Virus record (IMG/VR): IMGVR_UViG_2778261463_000018
Length of the DNA stretch: 6,829 nucleotides
Reading direction: 5' to 3' (one strand)
From: a virus
Taxonomy: Duplodnaviria > Heunggongvirae > Uroviricota > Caudoviricetes
Shown: positions 1,818 through 6,829 of the stretch, in pieces
Numbering within the stretch: position 1 is the stretch's first letter
How the letters are laid out: every line of letters starts with the position of its first letter
Position numbers and translations under genes: made by a program
Notes under the pieces: generated by a model
What the model saw: only the letters and a program-made list of their open reading frames with translations
The model's database searches: none
Told to the model about the DNA's origin: nothing

Positions 1818-1934
1818 ACCCATCCACTAATACAGAGATTTAACCATGAAGACTGGATATACGCCCGAACAGGGGCGGGGCTTCGTTCGGCCTTGTGAAA
1901 CTGAAAAACAACAAAATCGCGGTTTTTCAGACAT

Positions 1935-1962
1935 AAAAAAAGCGGCCCCGATAAGGAGCCGC
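1935..1962 (-). terminator. Rho-independent terminator (minus strand): GCGGCUCC-uuauc-GGGGCCGC followed by UUUUUUU
   Basis: 8-bp GC-rich stem (one G-U wobble), 5-nt loop, 7-U tract (complement of A-run 1935-1941); read directly. Confidence 0.6.
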
Positions 1963-2008
1963 CTTTCTGAACAATTAACCTACTGCGCAAAAAATGAATA
2001 TGAGCAGT
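1935..2008 (-). ncRNA. Candidate ~70-nt small RNA (promoter-to-terminator unit with no start codon)
   Basis: Bounded by an extended -10 element (TGaTATAAT, + coords 2020-2012) and an intrinsic terminator (1962-1935); the predicted transcript contains no AUG; lies immediately downstream of the terminator of the Arc-like operon, so it is an independent unit. Confidence 0.4.
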
Positions 2009-2011
2009 GGG

Positions 2012-2020
2012 ATTATATCA
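2012..2020 (-). promoter_or_regulatory. Extended -10 promoter element TGaTATAAT (minus strand) for the candidate sRNA
   Basis: Reverse complement of + strand 2011-2020 GATTATATCA reads TGATATAATC: perfect TATAAT with TG at -15/-14. No good -35, which is permissible for extended -10 promoters. Confidence 0.4.
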
Positions 2021-2058
2021 ACCGTGTGGCGAAGCGCCACAATTGCCGGATAACGGGC

Positions 2059-2086
2059 AAAGAAAAGGCCACCTGTCACGGTGGCC
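2059..2086 (-). terminator. Rho-independent terminator of the Arc-like/63-aa operon: GGCCACC-gugaca-GGUGGCC followed by UUUUCUUU
   Basis: 7-bp GC stem, 6-nt loop, U-rich tract (complement of 2059-2066), located 35 nt after the stop of the 63-aa ORF. Confidence 0.55.
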
Positions 2087-2120
2087 AATGTGATCAGTGT
2101 CCTGGCTTGCTGGTGGATTG

Positions 2121-2312
2121 TCAGCCAGGTGGGCGGTTTTTGTTTGCTTTTAAGCGCCGAGGGTATTTCTCGACAAAAGGATCAAGGGCGAACTTATCAG
2201 GAACTTTAAGATTTTCAGTACGGGTTAATGCCTTATTTATTTCCCTGCGGGTTTTCTCACGCTGGCGCATGATAATTGATAATGCTTTATTTTGTAGTTC
2301 CTGGTTATTCAT
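2121..2312 (-). CDS. Hypothetical 63-aa highly charged (K/R/E-rich) protein co-transcribed with the Arc-like repressor
   Basis: ATG at 2312 with SD AGGTGA 5 nt upstream (the track's 66-aa version starts at an upstream GTG with no SD); 57 nt downstream of the Arc-like stop; followed by an intrinsic terminator. No recognisable motif. Confidence 0.5.
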   Translation of the reverse strand: MNNQELQNKALSIIMRQREKTRREINKALTRTENLKVPDKFALDPFVEKYPRRLKANKNRPPG

Positions 2313-2369
2313 AATTATCACCTTTAAAACAATGCGCCGCAGTACCTCACACCACGGCGCTGATAGTTT

Positions 2370-2543
2370 TTATCCTTTGGGTTCTATGCCGCGTTGCTGT
2401 AATTCTTTGCGGAGAACGCGTTTAATCCAAGTGGCTAAAGATGTGTCGCCATCGGCCTTAGCTGCTTCTTCTAGCTGCGCTCTGAAGTCTTCCGGTAATC
2501 GCATTTGGTATGGAGGCGAACGTTTTTCTAATGGTGTTGACAT
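2370..2543 (-). CDS. Arc/MetJ-type ribbon-helix-helix DNA-binding protein, 57 aa (not in ORF track, below length cutoff)
   Basis: Minus-strand ORF MSTPLEKRSPPYQMRLPEDFRAQLEEAAKADGDTSLATWIKRVLRKELQQRGIEPKG: N-terminal arm, beta-strand-like YQMRLPEDF, then two helices, matching the Arc pattern (PQFNLRWPREV...helix A...RSVNSEIYQRV). SD GAAGGG; start codon abuts a palindromic operator. Confidence 0.7.
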   Translation of the reverse strand: MSTPLEKRSPPYQMRLPEDFRAQLEEAAKADGDTSLATWIKRVLRKELQQRGIEPKG

Positions 2544-2555
2544 GGTAATTACCCT
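2542..2555. promoter_or_regulatory. Operator O1: ATGGTAATTACCcT (perfect 10-bp core palindrome GGTAATTACC 2544-2553) overlapping the SD/start codon of the Arc-like gene
   Basis: Read directly; the 14-mer ACATGGTAATTACC at 2540-2553 is repeated exactly at 2570-2583. Confidence 0.55.
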
Positions 2556-2571
2556 TCATTACTATACCTAC

Positions 2572-2585
2572 ATGGTAATTACCAT
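2572..2585. promoter_or_regulatory. Operator O2: ATGGTAATTACCAT, perfect 14-bp palindrome, centre 30 bp from O1
   Basis: Exact self-reverse-complement; three helical turns from O1, suggesting cooperative binding by a dimer/tetramer of an RHH repressor. Confidence 0.55.
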
Positions 2586-2611
2586 TGTACTTGCCATTAC
2601 ACAAAAATCAA
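2584..2611 (-). promoter_or_regulatory. Candidate sigma70 promoter of the Arc-like operon (TTGATT-N16-TACAAT on minus strand)
   Basis: -35 TTGATT (+ coords 2611-2606), 16-bp spacer, -10 TACAAT (2589-2584); -10 overlaps operator O2 and the predicted start site falls inside it, as expected for autorepression. Confidence 0.35.
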
Positions 2612-2644
2612 CGCCCCGCAGTGCTGGGAACACATACGGGGCGT
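2611..2644. promoter_or_regulatory. Stem-loop ACGCCCCG-(18 nt)-CGGGGCGT between the operator/promoter region and the first plus-strand operon gene
   Basis: 8-bp GC-rich inverted repeat read directly; on the minus strand it is followed by UGAUUUUUGUG (terminator-like insulator); on the plus strand it would sit in the operon leader. Loop is large, so uncertain. Confidence 0.25.
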
Positions 2645-2673
2645 CTAACCAACAACGTAAACTAGGAGCCGTT

Positions 2674-2871
2674 ATGGTTGCCGTAAATCATATACCACAC
2701 CTTGTACACACACAAACCGCCTTTGTGTGGCGTTTTCTGGCACTGAGTGCCGGAGAATCTCAAATTATCCACGTGACCGCCTGGACAGAACGCGAAGCGC
2801 GTAACCGTTGCCCGTCCGGTTGTGTCGCTGTATTCGCCGCCCGTATTCGTCAGGAGGTGTGCCATGATTAA
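2674..2871 (+). CDS. Hypothetical protein, 65 aa (first gene of plus-strand operon)
   Basis: ATG 2674 with strong SD AGGAG 2664-2668 (5-nt spacing); stop TAA 2869-2871 overlaps the next start. It is the only supported part of the track's 341-aa ORF. Confidence 0.5.
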   Translation: MVAVNHIPHLVHTQTAFVWRFLALSAGESQIIHVTAWTEREARNRCPSGCVAVFAARIRQEVCHD

Positions 2872-3232
2872 CCTGTCACTTACCGATCTTAACCGCGTTC
2901 AGTTTCGTGAGAAATTTACCGGACAGCTACTGGTCAATGTAGAGAATGGACGCGTAGTAAGTAATTATCACCTGCCGGATGGTGCAATTGCCGGAAGCGT
3001 TGAAGCATTGCTGGAACTGGCGGAACGCGCGCGGCTGATGAAACCGTCAACGTGCCATCACGATGATGATCCGCATTTTACCGGGCGCATAGTGAGCCAT
3101 TACGAAAACGGCGTTGAGGTATCCTGCGAACAGCTACGCACTGATTGCTGTTTTGGCACTCTGCCGGAATTTATCGAATTGCTGACCAGTTGCGGATATC
3201 AGGTTATTCAGGGGGTGCGCCATGTGCAATAA
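2864..3232 (+). CDS. Hypothetical protein, 122 aa
   Basis: ATG 2864 with SD AGGAGGTG 2852-2859; the track's start at 2822 is upstream within the previous gene; stop overlaps next start (ATG...TAA at 3222-3232). Confidence 0.6.
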   Translation: MINLSLTDLNRVQFREKFTGQLLVNVENGRVVSNYHLPDGAIAGSVEALLELAERARLMKPSTCHHDDDPHFTGRIVSHYENGVEVSCEQLRTDCCFGTLPEFIELLTSCGYQVIQGVRHVQ

Positions 3233-3461
3233 CCCACGTCCGGACGCAGCCGCCGCCGCGCTCACTACGCTGATGCACGCGCTTATTGATATTTCTGTTA
3301 TTGCAGACATGGCGCATAAGCACGCCACCAGTGAAACAGAATATGCCGGGGCTTTCATTCCTCATTCGCTGGCGGTTATGCAACTTAGTGCTGATATGGC
3401 GCTGAATGAGGCCAAAGCTATCCTGATTGCTGATTGTGAAAATGGTGGGGGTTATGCGTGA
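3222..3461 (+). CDS. Hypothetical protein, 79 aa, Ala-rich
   Basis: ATG 3222 overlapping upstream stop; ends TGA 3459-3461 overlapping next start; coding-like composition; no recognisable motif. Confidence 0.5.
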   Translation: MCNNPRPDAAAAALTTLMHALIDISVIADMAHKHATSETEYAGAFIPHSLAVMQLSADMALNEAKAILIADCENGGGYA

Positions 3462-3675
3462 TGATCGTTTTAATTCCCTGAAACAGGAATTTTCCGGCGT
3501 TCCTGATAATGCGGCTGATGCGCTTTCGTCAATATCTGAAATTATGCGGGTGGCTTTTTTCTTTCTTTGCACTGATGAGCACAGGGATACAGGGCTAAAT
3601 ATTCTTGATATCGCCGCTAACTATGCTGATTTCGTAACGGAAACTGTTTTAAGAAAAACAACGGGTGGGGATTAA
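3454..3675 (+). CDS. Hypothetical protein, 73 aa
   Basis: ATG 3454 preceded by SD GGTGGGGG; the track's upstream TTG start at 3427 lacks an SD; overlaps the previous gene by 8 nt. Confidence 0.5.
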   Translation: MRDDRFNSLKQEFSGVPDNAADALSSISEIMRVAFFFLCTDEHRDTGLNILDIAANYADFVTETVLRKTTGGD

Positions 3676-3676
3676 T

Positions 3677-3910
3677 ATGCGTGATATTTACCTAGAAACA
3701 ATAGACCGCGCATTTAGTGCCATTGTTTACGCTGAAGGTATGTACGAAATATTGCAAATGTATCCAGATACATTTGGCGATAATGAGCGTGATGTAAAGA
3801 ATGCGCGGATTATTAAATCTCTGATAACTCTCCTTGAACCTGTAATAACAGAGTTGCAGGAAATAGACCTATTGCACGACAGATATAAAGAACAGCACAC
3901 CGGAGAATAA
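3677..3910 (+). CDS. Hypothetical protein, 77 aa, acidic
   Basis: ATG 3677 preceded by SD GGGTGGGG (6-nt spacing); the track's start at 3665 is a GTG inside the SD; stop TAA 3908-3910. Confidence 0.5.
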   Translation: MRDIYLETIDRAFSAIVYAEGMYEILQMYPDTFGDNERDVKNARIIKSLITLLEPVITELQEIDLLHDRYKEQHTGE

Positions 3911-3915
3911 AAATA

Positions 3916-4203
3916 ATGAAACTTAAATATTCTGGCTTAACTGCCAGTGGCAAAACTCGCACTAAATTCATGCGCGGCGATATTTACCGCGATAAGTACG
4001 GCGGCACGGTCATGATTAAGGGCGTGGAGGAACGTCGCATCACTTACCGCCGTGATGGCTACGAATATGACTGCGTGATGCCTGTTTATCAGTTCCGGCG
4101 TGATTTCACGCTGGTGGGCCATCGTAAAGCCGTTAATCAGAAACGTGCAGCAATCTATATCCGCAAAATCCGTGAAATGCTGGTCGCAGGGGGTAAAAAA
4201 TGA
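3916..4203 (+). CDS. Hypothetical basic protein, 95 aa (R/K-rich, possibly nucleic-acid binding)
   Basis: ATG 3916; stop TGA 4201-4203 overlaps the ATPase start (ATGA coupling); high Arg/Lys/Tyr content. Confidence 0.55.
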   Translation: MKLKYSGLTASGKTRTKFMRGDIYRDKYGGTVMIKGVEERRITYRRDGYEYDCVMPVYQFRRDFTLVGHRKAVNQKRAAIYIRKIREMLVAGGKK

Positions 4204-5606
4204 AACTGGCACCGAACGTAAAACTGTTACCGAAAAATAAACACACTGAGGCGGTTATTTTTGCGGGTGATAATGCTCACTCCTTTGCAGAACATTACAT
4301 GATTGCACAGGCCAAAAAAGCAGGCGATCCCATCCCTCCGGTTTACCTGGGCCGTTATCAGTTAAGCGAACTGGACAACTTACAGATTGTTGATGAAGGA
4401 CGATACAGGGCAAAGGTCATACGCGCCGGAAACCTGGACGATATGCAGATGCTGACCATTGCCACAAAACTGGCGATCGCCGGAGTCCTGGAGGCGCGGC
4501 TACTTTCTGAAAATTTCGAACTGCTGGAGGACTGGAGCGACCAGCTACCACGACTACGGGAAACATGGGAGAGAGGGGAAAGCCTGGTCATGAATGGCGG
4601 AAAGCGAAAAATCACACTTCCCATCTCATGGGGTTCTGAGGGATTCGATGCGCAGCAAAGCTACGTCATTAAGGGGCTTATTCCGGCTGAGTCATTATGC
4701 AGCACCTACGGGGCCAGCGGTTCTTATAAATCGTTCCTCGCCATTTCCTGGTCGTGCCATGTTGCCACAGGTATGGCATGGGGAGGCCGCAGGGTAAGTA
4801 AGGGTGCGGTTATCTATATCGCTGGCGAAGGCAGCATGGGCGTAAAACGCCGCGTTAAGGCGTGGGAGATAACCCACGAAAAAATGGTTACAGATTTGTG
4901 CATCATTAACGCGCCGGTATTCCCCGCATCGCCTGACTATGTGGAGCAGGTTATCAGGACTGCCGGACTTGTTAAGAGCAGAACGGGCGAAAATGTGCGG
5001 CTGATTGTGATCGACACGCTGGCCCGTTGCTTTGGTGGGAATGATGAAAATGATTCCCGTGATATGGGCGCATTTATCCAGGGGTGTGACGCGATAAAGC
5101 AGGCTACAGGGGCCACGGTGCTGGTGGTTCACCATTCCGGCAAGGATGAAACAAAGGGGGCGCGTGGTTCCAGCGCATTCCGTGCCGCGCTTGATGCAGA
5201 GTACCGAATCAGCCGGGAAAATTCAGACGTTACAGCACTGGTGGCGGCGTGTACGAAGATGAAAGACGCAGAGGAGCCAAAAGAGAGCGCATACGACCTT
5301 AAAAGCGTGGAGGTGTTTACCGATACCGATGGCGAAGAGATTGTGTCCATGGTGGTGATTGACGTTCCCCGCGCCCCTGCTGAACTGGAGCGCATAGAGG
5401 AGGCAGGCAACAAGACGGAAAACCATACCGCGCTATGGGGGTGCATCCGTTCACGCACACAGAACGGCGACAAGTGCACGATCCCGCTGTTACGTGATGA
5501 CATGAAACGGCTTGGGTATGACGTGAAAAATATGCGGCGATGGTTAGCCAAACTGGAAAAAGACGCCGTGATTTACATTGATGGTGATGATGTAGGACCA
5601 CTGTAA
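4200..5606 (+). CDS. P-loop NTPase of the RecA-like/AAA_25 (RepA/DnaB-type replicative helicase) family, 468 aa; putative island replication protein
   Basis: P-loop-like YGASGSYKS (4707-4733), Walker B-like RLIVIDTLARCF, and VLVVHHSGKD...GARGSSAF motifs characteristic of RepA/DnaB-like helicases; SD AGGGGG; immediately followed by an iteron array. Confidence 0.75.
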   Translation: MKLAPNVKLLPKNKHTEAVIFAGDNAHSFAEHYMIAQAKKAGDPIPPVYLGRYQLSELDNLQIVDEGRYRAKVIRAGNLDDMQMLTIATKLAIAGVLEARLLSENFELLEDWSDQLPRLRETWERGESLVMNGGKRKITLPISWGSEGFDAQQSYVIKGLIPAESLCSTYGASGSYKSFLAISWSCHVATGMAWGGRRVSKGAVIYIAGEGSMGVKRRVKAWEITHEKMVTDLCIINAPVFPASPDYVEQVIRTAGLVKSRTGENVRLIVIDTLARCFGGNDENDSRDMGAFIQGCDAIKQATGATVLVVHHSGKDETKGARGSSAFRAALDAEYRISRENSDVTALVAACTKMKDAEEPKESAYDLKSVEVFTDTDGEEIVSMVVIDVPRAPAELERIEEAGNKTENHTALWGCIRSRTQNGDKCTIPLLRDDMKRLGYDVKNMRRWLAKLEKDAVIYIDGDDVGPL

Positions 5607-5806
5607 AAAGTGAGTAGCAAAAGTGAGTAATGGTGATGTTTTTACAAAATATTAACACAATTACTCACTTTCTCACCTGTATACATGCTCAAAAGTGAGG
5701 AGTGAAAAAACACTTATGAAACATGCACATACAAAACACAAAAATCTCAAGTGAGACGAAGCGAGACGCTTTAAAAAGTGAGTAGTAAAAGTGAGAGATG
5801 GTGAGC
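5607..5806. repeat. Iteron-like array with core AAGTGAG(T/A) (at least 7 direct and 2 inverted copies) around an AT-rich spacer; putative replication origin
   Basis: AAAGTGAGTA at 5607, 5620, 5775; AAAGTGAGA 5788; AAAGTGAGG 5691; AAGTGAGA 5750; GGTGAGC 5800; inverted copies TACTCACTT 5662-5670 and TCTCACC 5672-5678; AT-rich 5638-5665; palindrome TGTATACA 5678-5685. Confidence 0.5.
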
Positions 5807-6179: not shown

Positions 6180-6422
6180 ATGAAGGTAAACCACAAAAAG
6201 ACAGATCACCGCGCCATTGACCTTACAGAGCACTGGCTGAGGGTGGCGATAAAAATCATCGACCGCAACGCGGGAGAAGGATACGCGAAAGCACATCCCG
6301 AACTGATAAGCGCATTCATGACAACGACGGCGGCAAACTTTGCCACGCTGACAGAGCGGGATATTGCCCAAGCGGAACAGGTGACAACCATCAACGTTAA
6401 AACCAGTGAGGTGGAATCATGA
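6180..6422 (+). CDS. Hypothetical protein, 80 aa
   Basis: ATG 6180 preceded by GGAG 6169-6172; stop TGA 6420-6422 overlaps the ssb start (ATGA coupling). Confidence 0.5.
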   Translation: MKVNHKKTDHRAIDLTEHWLRVAIKIIDRNAGEGYAKAHPELISAFMTTTAANFATLTERDIAQAEQVTTINVKTSEVES

Positions 6423-6829
6423 CAGCACAGATAGCGGCTTACGGGCGGCTGGTGGCTGACCCGCAGTTAAAGACCACCAGCAAGGGGACACAAATGGCGA
6501 TGGCGAGTATGGCGGTTCCCCTGCCATGCAGCCAGGCAGATGACGGAACGGCGACGATGTGGTTATCCGTCCTGGCGTTTGGCAGACAGGCCGACGCACT
6601 GGCCAGACACCACAAAGGCGAACTGGTGAGCGTGGCGGGTAACATGCAGGTGAGCCAGTGGACCGGACAGAACGGGGAAACGCGGCAGGGCTGGCAGGTT
6701 ATCGCAGACAGCGTAATCAGTGCGCGGACAGTGCGACCTGGCGGAAAAACACGCAAAACCACAGGCACACAGGGGAATAAGCCACCAGCGGGAGGCGATG
6801 ACCCTTACGGTGATGATATTCCGTTCTGA
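6419..6829 (+). CDS. ssb: Single-stranded DNA-binding protein (SSB-like), 136 aa, complete; stop at last base of window
   Basis: N-terminal YGRLVADPQLKTTSKGT...WLSVLAFGRQADALARHHKGELVSVAGNMQVSQWTGQNGETRQ fits the SSB OB-fold pattern (GrL..DPE.R...G...W..V..FG+.AE....+KG..V...G.L....W.D..G..R); Gly/Pro-rich linker; C-terminal acidic tip DDPYGDDIPF matches the canonical SSB tail (E. coli ...DDDIPF). Confidence 0.8.
   Translation: MTAQIAAYGRLVADPQLKTTSKGTQMAMASMAVPLPCSQADDGTATMWLSVLAFGRQADALARHHKGELVSVAGNMQVSQWTGQNGETRQGWQVIADSVISARTVRPGGKTRKTTGTQGNKPPAGGDDPYGDDIPF

Follow-up and report, generated by a model that had tools for sequence, protein, structure and literature searches.

A candidate ribbon-helix-helix repressor and a separately exchanged small gene behind it in a Gram-negative phage-inducible chromosomal island

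Phage-inducible chromosomal islands (PICIs) of Gram-negative bacteria have been described as a succession of integration, dynamic 'Bro', replication and late zones (PMC10111431), and it is unclear whether they possess a global repressor (PMC6092414). For the satellite P4, the account given in PMC10111431, which cites Forti 1999 on this point, is that translation of eta from an upstream promoter prevents termination. Here we analyse a 6,829-nucleotide (nt) stretch of DNA, the virus record IMGVR_UViG_2778261463_000018 (hereafter the window), and in particular a leftward operon at positions 2059-2543 that encodes a 57-amino acid (aa) ribbon-helix-helix (RHH) protein of the Arc class followed by a basic protein of 63 aa. 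The reading that we favour, with moderate confidence, is that of a PICI operon in which an RHH repressor is followed by a separate and swappable 63-aa cassette, the two forming neither a toxin-antitoxin nor an antirepressor pair. The locus is best described as a satellite immunity architecture of new form.

Several described systems resemble this arrangement in part. The immI region of P22 (arc-ant, with the divergent mnt) likewise has a small Arc-class RHH gene in first position, tandem palindromic operators (in the window, candidate ones) in the promoter and a second gene downstream, but the second gene of the window encodes only 63 aa and is unrelated to Ant, a second divergent RHH gene is missing, the two genes recombine independently, and the candidate operators of the RHH protein also cover the promoter of a divergent replication operon. 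With the vis-eta/kil-cI region of P4 (PLE/PLL) the window shares its position right after an alpA/vis homologue as well as an internal promoter, and P4 eta (8168..8812) corresponds in position to a long open reading frame (ORF) of the window, here called the eta-like ORF, with which it also shares an Ash/Icd-like C-terminus and an in-frame short gene nested at the end. Unlike P4, the window lacks C4 (cI) and isrK (seqA), has the RHH gene and its candidate operators at the internal promoter instead, and encodes a whole two-gene operon antisense within its eta-like ORF. RHH toxin-antitoxin modules (ParDE, CopG/RelE, CcdAB) resemble the operon in that its RHH gene comes first and a small gene second, its autoregulation is likely and it resides on a mobile element, whereas the window shows no toxin fold, no antitoxin extension and no co-inheritance of its two genes, and has a long structured spacer between them. 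As in the case of Stl/Rpr of Gram-positive PICIs (the Staphylococcus aureus pathogenicity islands, or SaPIs), the candidate repressor gene and the excision/replication operon of the satellite are transcribed away from each other, although the protein in the window is a 57-aa RHH protein of a different fold and size. Finally, the 'moron' cargo behind prophage repressors, such as lambda rexAB after cI, also occupies a variable accessory slot on the maintenance transcript, but the 63-aa protein has no match to a defence family (PADLOC).

The first gene of the operon (2370..2543, minus strand, 57 aa) encodes a candidate repressor and autoregulator. Its product matches PHROG 228 ('Arc-like repressor') with E = 1.5e-6, and its AlphaFold2 monomer has the strand-helix-helix topology of the class, with an extended N-terminus followed by helices at residues 18-31 and 36-50. 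All 50 of the 50 PDB matches listed by Foldseek for this model are RHH proteins (AmrZ, CopA, Arc, CopG, ParG and NikR among them), the best being AmrZ at 37% identity with a root-mean-square deviation of 1.4 Å. The protein has no C-terminal extension of the toxin-neutralising kind, the predicted helices ending at residue 50 of 57. We found the family to comprise 93 homologue clusters at 60-98% identity, almost all of them 56-58 aa in length, which range over the Gammaproteobacteria (Enterobacterales, Pasteurellales, Aeromonas, Oceanimonas and Gilliamella). Searching the PDB with a profile of the RHH family returned designed helical repeat proteins only, which we judged to be spurious; a literature search on YlcI/YnfO/DUF3950 gave nothing useful; and the paper on EcCIMP1 deals with another regulator, a PerC/ANR-like protein.

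The case for repression comes from the DNA in front of this gene. There are exactly two copies of GGTAATTACC in the window, where 0.2 would be expected, and each is the core of a longer operator-like element of the form ATGGTAATTACC(C/A)T; the two elements lie 30 bp apart between divergent promoter-like sites. O1 (ATGGTAATTACCCT; 2542..2555, core 2544-2553) falls in the spacer of a rightward sigma-70-like promoter and over the RHH start codon, while O2, a perfect 14-bp palindrome (ATGGTAATTACCAT; 2572..2585, core 2574-2583), lies over the predicted start sites of both divergent promoters. The rightward promoter (2537..2565, plus strand; TTGACA, 17 nt, TACTAT; 10 of 12 consensus matches) would serve the Icd-like/replication operon, and its -35 hexamer, TTGACA, is situated inside codons 1-3 of the RHH gene. 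The leftward promoter-like site (2584..2611, minus strand; TTGATT, 16 nt, TACAAT) would serve the RHH operon. Judged from sequence, both conserved palindromes are thus candidate operators that overlap the two promoters, including that of the RHH gene itself.

These elements were then compared across species at loci whose RHH protein is at least about 75% identical to that of the window. Palindromes at -10 and -41 from the RHH start are present in Oceanimonas, Xenorhabdus, Photorhabdus, Pantoea, Shigella and one Gilliamella locus. In Yersinia and Yokenella the -10 palindrome is retained, with an upstream copy that is more degenerate. Operator conservation therefore spans several genera and more than one order, and in the cross-genus alignment both operators, the TTGACA, a -10-like hexamer between the operators and the TACAAT abutting O2 are all fixed in place. 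On account of this operator/promoter geometry and its co-conservation across genera, the RHH protein is most likely an autoregulated repressor of the island replication operon. Just upstream of the RHH promoter there is, in addition, a GC-rich hairpin (2611..2645; -27 kcal/mol, z = -4.5 on the minus strand) that is conserved and whose stem covaries between genera. The sequence after it on the minus strand, UUGAUUUUU, also serves as the -35 region of the RHH promoter, and the hairpin is at the same time contained in the 5' leader of the Icd-like mRNA; it may act as an insulating terminator or as a leader structure.

The second gene (2121..2312, minus strand) encodes a basic helical protein of 63 aa identical to WP_001064590.1, which is annotated 'hypothetical'. 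It contains 8 Lys, 8 Arg, 5 Glu and 2 Asp residues (net charge +9, pI 10.7), has no hydrophobic segment suited to a membrane toxin, and is modelled by AlphaFold2 (predicted local distance difference test score, pLDDT, of 82) as a helix at residues 3-33, a linker, a helix at residues 44-49 and a tail. Members of its family are 56-92 aa long and begin with a variable helical N-terminus carrying '(I/L)(I/L)xRQxEK'. The linker that comes next is Pro-rich and variable too, whereas the C-terminus, FALExF[VL]xKYPRRLKxxKNRPPG, hardly varies at all; in the model this end is a short amphipathic helix followed by a basic tail. With a word-indexed search we obtained 7 clusters, all from Escherichia coli, with an exhaustive hidden Markov model search of 1.84 billion representatives 16, and with a profile search 38, of which every one with an organism name is from E. 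coli. Searches of the protein against Pfam, NCBIfam, PHROGs and PADLOC yielded noise and no significant match, Foldseek of the AlphaFold2 model gave 0 PDB matches and a single, meaningless match in BFVD, and tblastn found none in phage genomes and three in the plasmid collection, the latter resembling chromosomal islands. The one match in a PDB sequence search with the family profile, a Fab, was spurious, and a literature search on the peptide motifs gave nothing useful. By these searches the gene appears to belong to a small, new and uncharacterised family, almost restricted to E. coli and confined to satellites.

Several features indicate that this gene is no chance ORF. Homologues at 52-57% identity keep the start codon, the Shine-Dalgarno (SD) sequence, the stop codon and the length, and the nucleotide differences within the conserved C-terminal block are mostly at third codon positions. 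Replacements are conservative in the 63-aa frame and radical in the overlapping antisense frame; in the comparison with related locus L025, for example, mean BLOSUM62 scores are +0.1 to +0.4 in the former and -1.7 to -2.1 in the latter (the loci used for comparison are cited throughout by L numbers). This asymmetry shows the amino-acid sequence itself to be under selection.

Between the two genes is a spacer of exactly 57 nt (2369..2313, minus strand) that contains a junction hairpin with a weak U-tract after it (2334..2360, minus strand; GCGCCGUGGUGU-GAG-GUACUGCGGCGC, then AUUGUUUUAA). The folding energy of this hairpin is -19.5 kcal/mol for RNA of the minus strand (z = -2.6) and -14.1 kcal/mol for the plus strand, and an action on plus-strand RNA is the less likely in that its G.U pairs make it stable on the minus strand only. 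The element (CAGCGCCGTGGTGTGAGGTACTGCGGCGCATTGYTTTACAGG) is found 5' of each 63-aa-family gene in the E. coli and Shigella loci, with a consensus of a 10-bp stem, G.U pairs and three compensatory pairs. The SD sequence of the 63-aa ORF, AAGGUGA (2318..2324, minus strand), ends 5 nt before the ATG at 2312, and the operon closes with an intrinsic terminator (2059..2086, minus strand; stem 2086..2067, GGCCACC-GUGACA-GGUGGCC, then UUUUCUUU). Co-transcription of the two genes is plausible, since they share a strand, a promoter scan between them found no promoter-like site and the U-tract of the junction hairpin is weak. An earlier sequence-only reading of this DNA had already described an Arc-like gene, a 57-nt spacer with a GC hairpin, a charged 63-aa ORF with a strong SD sequence and an intrinsic terminator belonging to the pair, and all of these elements were borne out at the positions given above. 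An Rfam search of the window yielded only a sub-threshold match, to isrD, which falls on the terminator.

Further terminator-like hairpins are present on the minus strand downstream. One at about 1966-1934 (stem about 1966-1941; seven-U run, -23.3 kcal/mol, z = -5.1) sits inside the eta-like ORF, and another has its stem at 1818-1800 followed by UCUUUUU (1797-1818 in all). Three tandem minus-strand terminators between the operon and alpA would together provide a triple insulation of alpA from convergent transcription.

The two genes do not travel together. Megablast breakpoints at about 2376 and 2395, in the 3' end of the RHH gene, mark recombination points. An identical 63-aa protein is found behind at least five first genes, namely three YlcI/YnfO-type alleles, a divergent RHH gene and the RHH gene of the window (four alleles among the compared loci plus the window's own), and the first gene is always 57 nt upstream. 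The identical RHH protein, for its part, is present in several hundred complete E. coli genomes, and its commonest arrangement there (examined in L002) is with a following 58-aa protein of phrog_21027, which has only the 17-residue FALE motif in common with the 63-aa family (hhalign probability 79%). Among 5426 complete E. coli genomes, no more than one matched both genes of the window together, and only at 76% identity; the two are not co-inherited as a unit. Other members of the 63-aa family stand behind DUF3950-type, 67-aa or 101-aa first genes, and O157:H7 islands have a family member with no recognisable first gene. In the 79 loci of other species, the RHH gene either has no companion or is followed by ORFs of unrelated kinds, which encode small lipoproteins, membrane proteins, a MazE-like protein or DUF1543 with HNH; a FALE-type gene was found in only one, from Shigella. 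The sequence-only reading had suspected a type II toxin-antitoxin or repressor/antirepressor (arc-ant) pair with a possible new partner protein. Of this, the novelty survives, as the family is new and uncharacterised, its ORF is conserved, and neither a known toxin family nor any other known domain was recognised in it (PDB, BFVD and curated families). The partnership is not supported, the genes recombining freely; and both forms of the pair are disfavoured, because the partners are shuffled, the RHH protein has no antitoxin tail and the 63-aa protein has no similarity to toxins or to Ant, an Ant/AntA domain included.

The position directly behind the repressor looks like a slot used generally for cargo or defence genes. 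In other genera, at L086, L088 and L091, it holds small ORFs with signal-peptide- or lipoprotein-like features that begin about 4 nt after the RHH stop codon, and at L043 and L031 a MazE/AbrB-like gene, or DUF1543 and HNH genes adjoining SIR2- or AAA_13-type genes. Tandem arrays of two to four small genes were also seen (L006, 3758-4747; L009, 4001-4804; L023, 2758-3237), in which the genes share a reading frame and encode a charged helix plus a FALE-like motif, most of them with a junction hairpin upstream, which gives the impression of a series of cassettes within the eta-like ORF. Since the FALE-type genes each carry the junction hairpin, the exchangeable unit is the hairpin together with the SD sequence and the ORF, and the position behind the repressor behaves as a cargo slot.

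The favoured reading of an RHH repressor followed by a separate cassette would work as follows. The RHH protein, as a dimer of dimers on two ATGGTAATTACCAT palindromes 30 bp apart, would keep the Icd-like/replication operon off and regulate its own synthesis. The 63-aa gene would be an independent cassette in the variable cargo slot. During quiescence of the island it would probably be expressed at a reduced level, from transcripts that pass the leaky hairpin. Our best guess for its product is a small trans-acting binder of a host or helper-phage target that is constant across islands, with the C-terminal motif as a working guess for the part that binds; we infer that it is an unlikely partner of the variable first-gene product, and neither a toxin neutralised by the RHH protein nor an antirepressor of it. 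The eta-like ORF, in turn, would have to stay translatable so that transcripts from the alpA promoter reach the replication genes, as in P4.

A number of points weigh against this reading. The RHH protein scores below the cutoffs of both Pfam Arc (14.3 versus 20.4 bits) and NCBIfam YlcI_YnfO_N (18.7 versus 30), and the E-values of its Foldseek matches are all above 1. The combination of an RHH-type first gene and a small gene with a FALE motif is a recurrent arrangement in E. coli, and the two genes may have a generic functional link, for instance through a common promoter or through dosage. Repressor activity, operator binding, co-transcription and translation are moreover all deduced from the nucleotide sequence, and the activity proposed for the 63-aa protein, a best guess, is drawn solely from architecture and distribution.

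The operon has a further peculiarity in what lies opposite to it. The eta-like ORF (1846..2871, plus strand, 341 codons) starts 53 nt after the alpA stop codon, ends in the Icd-like domain, and runs antisense to the terminator, both small genes, the hairpin and the promoter/operator region. Its frame, which is the plus-strand frame of the Icd-like gene, has no stop codon from 1831 to 2868, while the other five frames contain 17-24 stops each (1800-2900 scanned), and the Icd-like gene, with its own SD sequence (AGGAG), is nested in frame at its end. An open antisense frame was also found in every related E. coli locus that we examined and in Serratia and Pasteurella loci, the loci with a long antisense ORF being the window, L004, L006, L009, L013, L016, L018 and L106-L115. 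We simulated openness by holding the minus-strand proteins fixed, resampling synonymous codons and shuffling intergenic DNA: for the window 6.6 stops were expected (P = 6.5e-4), and other loci gave P < 5e-5 (L006 and L009) and P = 7.5e-4 (Pasteurella, L016). All the small minus-strand genes use a single frame, one in which their wobble positions fall on those of the eta-like ORF, whose antisense translation is rich in Cys, Ser and Arg and not conserved. Where a convergent alpA is nearby, the antisense frame over the RHH gene is open for 130 codons or more in 21 of 26 loci, versus 15 of 53 others (Fisher P = 1.2e-5, a comparison across species in which the kinship of loci is ignored).

As the stop-free ORF overlies the small genes, mis-annotation is recurrent: PGAP calls 'Icd-like' proteins of 340-670 aa, or pseudogenes, over the small genes and sometimes instead of a small gene. 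The idea that the small ORFs merely mirror the long plus-strand one, which alone would be a gene, is rejected on the replacement patterns, the conservation of the RHH family and the conserved SD and start positions. We read 1846-2871 as an eta-like ORF that selection keeps open so that translation-coupled read-through can take place, the Icd-like gene nested in it corresponding to kil; the prevention of termination by eta translation in P4 would explain an open frame in the window.

The immunity of P4 also involves RNA elements, and in these the islands differ. The Rfam models of C4 (cI RNA) and isrK (seqA leader) gave no match to the window even at E <= 1, nor were these elements found in L001, L020, L085 or the Serratia and Pasteurella islands. 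P4, by contrast, has them, as do L002 (3474-3659), L004 (3584-3774), L006, L009, L013, L023 and L025, sometimes in two copies. Protein-based and RNA-based control thus seem to occur in differing combinations among islands. The idea that the RHH protein and RNA immunity are mutually exclusive was considered and ruled out, L002 and L025 carrying a first gene as well as C4/isrK. In the window the RHH protein may be the sole immunity factor.

A more far-reaching reading, which we put forward only tentatively and think somewhat doubtful as a whole, joins these observations into one scheme: a regulatory operon lying antisense in a stop-free ORF, a bistable switch triggered by alpA, an RHH master repressor and FALE-type effectors. 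The whole operon would be nested antisense in an ORF whose sole selected property is the lack of stop codons. When a helper turns on alpA, ribosome-coupled read-through would pass the RHH-controlled promoter into the replication genes, and the same read-through would silence the RHH operon by convergent transcription, the result being a bistable switch built on protein, in place of the CI RNA of P4 or in addition to it. The RHH protein could then fill the vacant place of master repressor in a large subset of Gram-negative PICIs, and the FALE-motif proteins could form a new class of satellite-encoded small effectors.

Other explanations of the 63-aa gene have to be weighed against the cassette reading. 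The best surviving of these, though still unlikely, is that its product is a second immunity factor that silences the island by way of the leader RNA, Rho, RNA polymerase or titration of AlpA, in effect a protein counterpart of the CI RNA of P4. The strongly basic composition and invariant basic tail of the protein would suit this role, as would its predicted expression together with the repressor and the absence from the window of the C4/isrK elements found in many sister islands, and P4 biology ties the control of termination to this very region (PMC10111431). However, members of the 63-aa family coexist with C4/isrK in L004, L006, L009, L013, L023 and L025, the same 63-aa protein occurs alongside AlpA proteins of 62, 69, 74 and 98 aa, and most RHH-bearing satellites of other genera have no 63-aa gene at all.

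An arc-ant-like function, in which the 63-aa protein would be an antirepressor of the helper repressor (as P4 epsilon is of P2 C) or of the RHH protein, its synthesis being restrained by the RHH protein, strikes us as quite improbable. The P22-like architecture, with a second gene apparently co-transcribed under an RHH-controlled promoter, speaks for it, and a constant small gene behind varying first genes would fit a target not encoded by the island, for example the repressor of a helper; the family is also diverse within one species. Yet the protein has no similarity in Pfam or PHROG to Ant/AntA, Bro, Epsilon or known antirepressors, and the AntA/Bro proteins of related islands are separate genes on the other strand. 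The gene is, moreover, on the maintenance-side transcript, where a constitutive helper derepressor would be costly, and action on the RHH protein is unlikely given the free swapping of first genes.

A type II toxin-antitoxin module, with the RHH protein as antitoxin and autorepressor and the 63-aa protein as a novel small toxin, is very unlikely: the RHH-first order, the small second gene, the likely autoregulation and the mobile setting are as expected of such a module, and the RHH protein has weak matches to HicB-like antitoxin PHROGs (E = 0.039), but the genes are separated by 57 nt with a hairpin rather than overlapping or tightly coupled, the 57-aa RHH protein lacks a toxin-binding tail, the second protein matches no toxin family or fold and nothing in PADLOC and has no hydrophobic segment of a membrane toxin, and each gene is found without the other. 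We can likewise give hardly any credence to a non-functional 63-aa ORF conserved on account of the eta-like ORF or of RNA/DNA elements, for although the long opposite-strand ORF is kept open with coincident wobble positions and is sometimes annotated by PGAP in place of the small gene, replacements are conservative in the 63-aa frame and radical in the antisense one, start codon, SD sequence, stop codon and length are kept at 52-57% identity, and the antisense translation (Cys/Ser/Arg-rich) is not conserved.

Against the uncertainty over a global repressor in Gram-negative PICIs, a 57-aa RHH protein whose predicted operators lie over the replication promoter and are conserved across several genera is a candidate that can be tested, and one that would apply to a large subset of these islands. 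The confinement of the 63-aa family to satellites and its exchange as a cassette form the pattern expected of accessory factors in conflicts between satellite, helper and host. The stop-free antisense ORF, finally, would be a rare case in which selection apparently acts on translatability rather than on the encoded protein, and does so across a whole opposite operon.

The assignment of the window to the Gram-negative PICIs, and so to the phage satellites, is made by sequence because of family matches for int, alpA, Icd-like, DUF4222, helicase and SSB genes and because of the four-zone layout. The order int, alpA, dynamic zone and replication zone (helicase, SSB and probable iterated origin) was found, mostly in one direction, and agrees with the zones of PMC10111431 and also with PMC6092414. 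A tyrosine integrase is encoded at 1-1230 and AlpA at 1605-1793 (Pfam E = 5e-18), followed beyond the leftward operon by the Icd-like 65-aa gene (2674-2871, plus strand; NCBIfam NF033153, 64.8 bits versus a cutoff of 25, with PHROG matches besides), DUF4222 (3916-4203, plus strand), a RepA-type AAA_25 helicase (4200-5606, plus strand) and SSB (6419-6829). Segments near-identical to the window occur in many E. coli chromosomes.

The short overlapping ORFs between the Icd-like gene and DUF4222 match PHROG families of unknown function. They form part of a rightward run on the plus strand (2864-3232, 3222-3461, 3451-3675, 3677-3910, 3916-4203 and 4200-5606) in which starts and stops overlap or abut, several genes overlapping by 4-11 nt, which suggests translational coupling all along the rightward operon. 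Just 3' of the helicase gene is an iteron-rich stretch (5601-5804) that is probably the replication origin of the island; it holds copies of AAAGTGAG in both orientations, as well as two 36-nt direct repeats that are situated 168 nt apart on either side of an AT-rich stretch.

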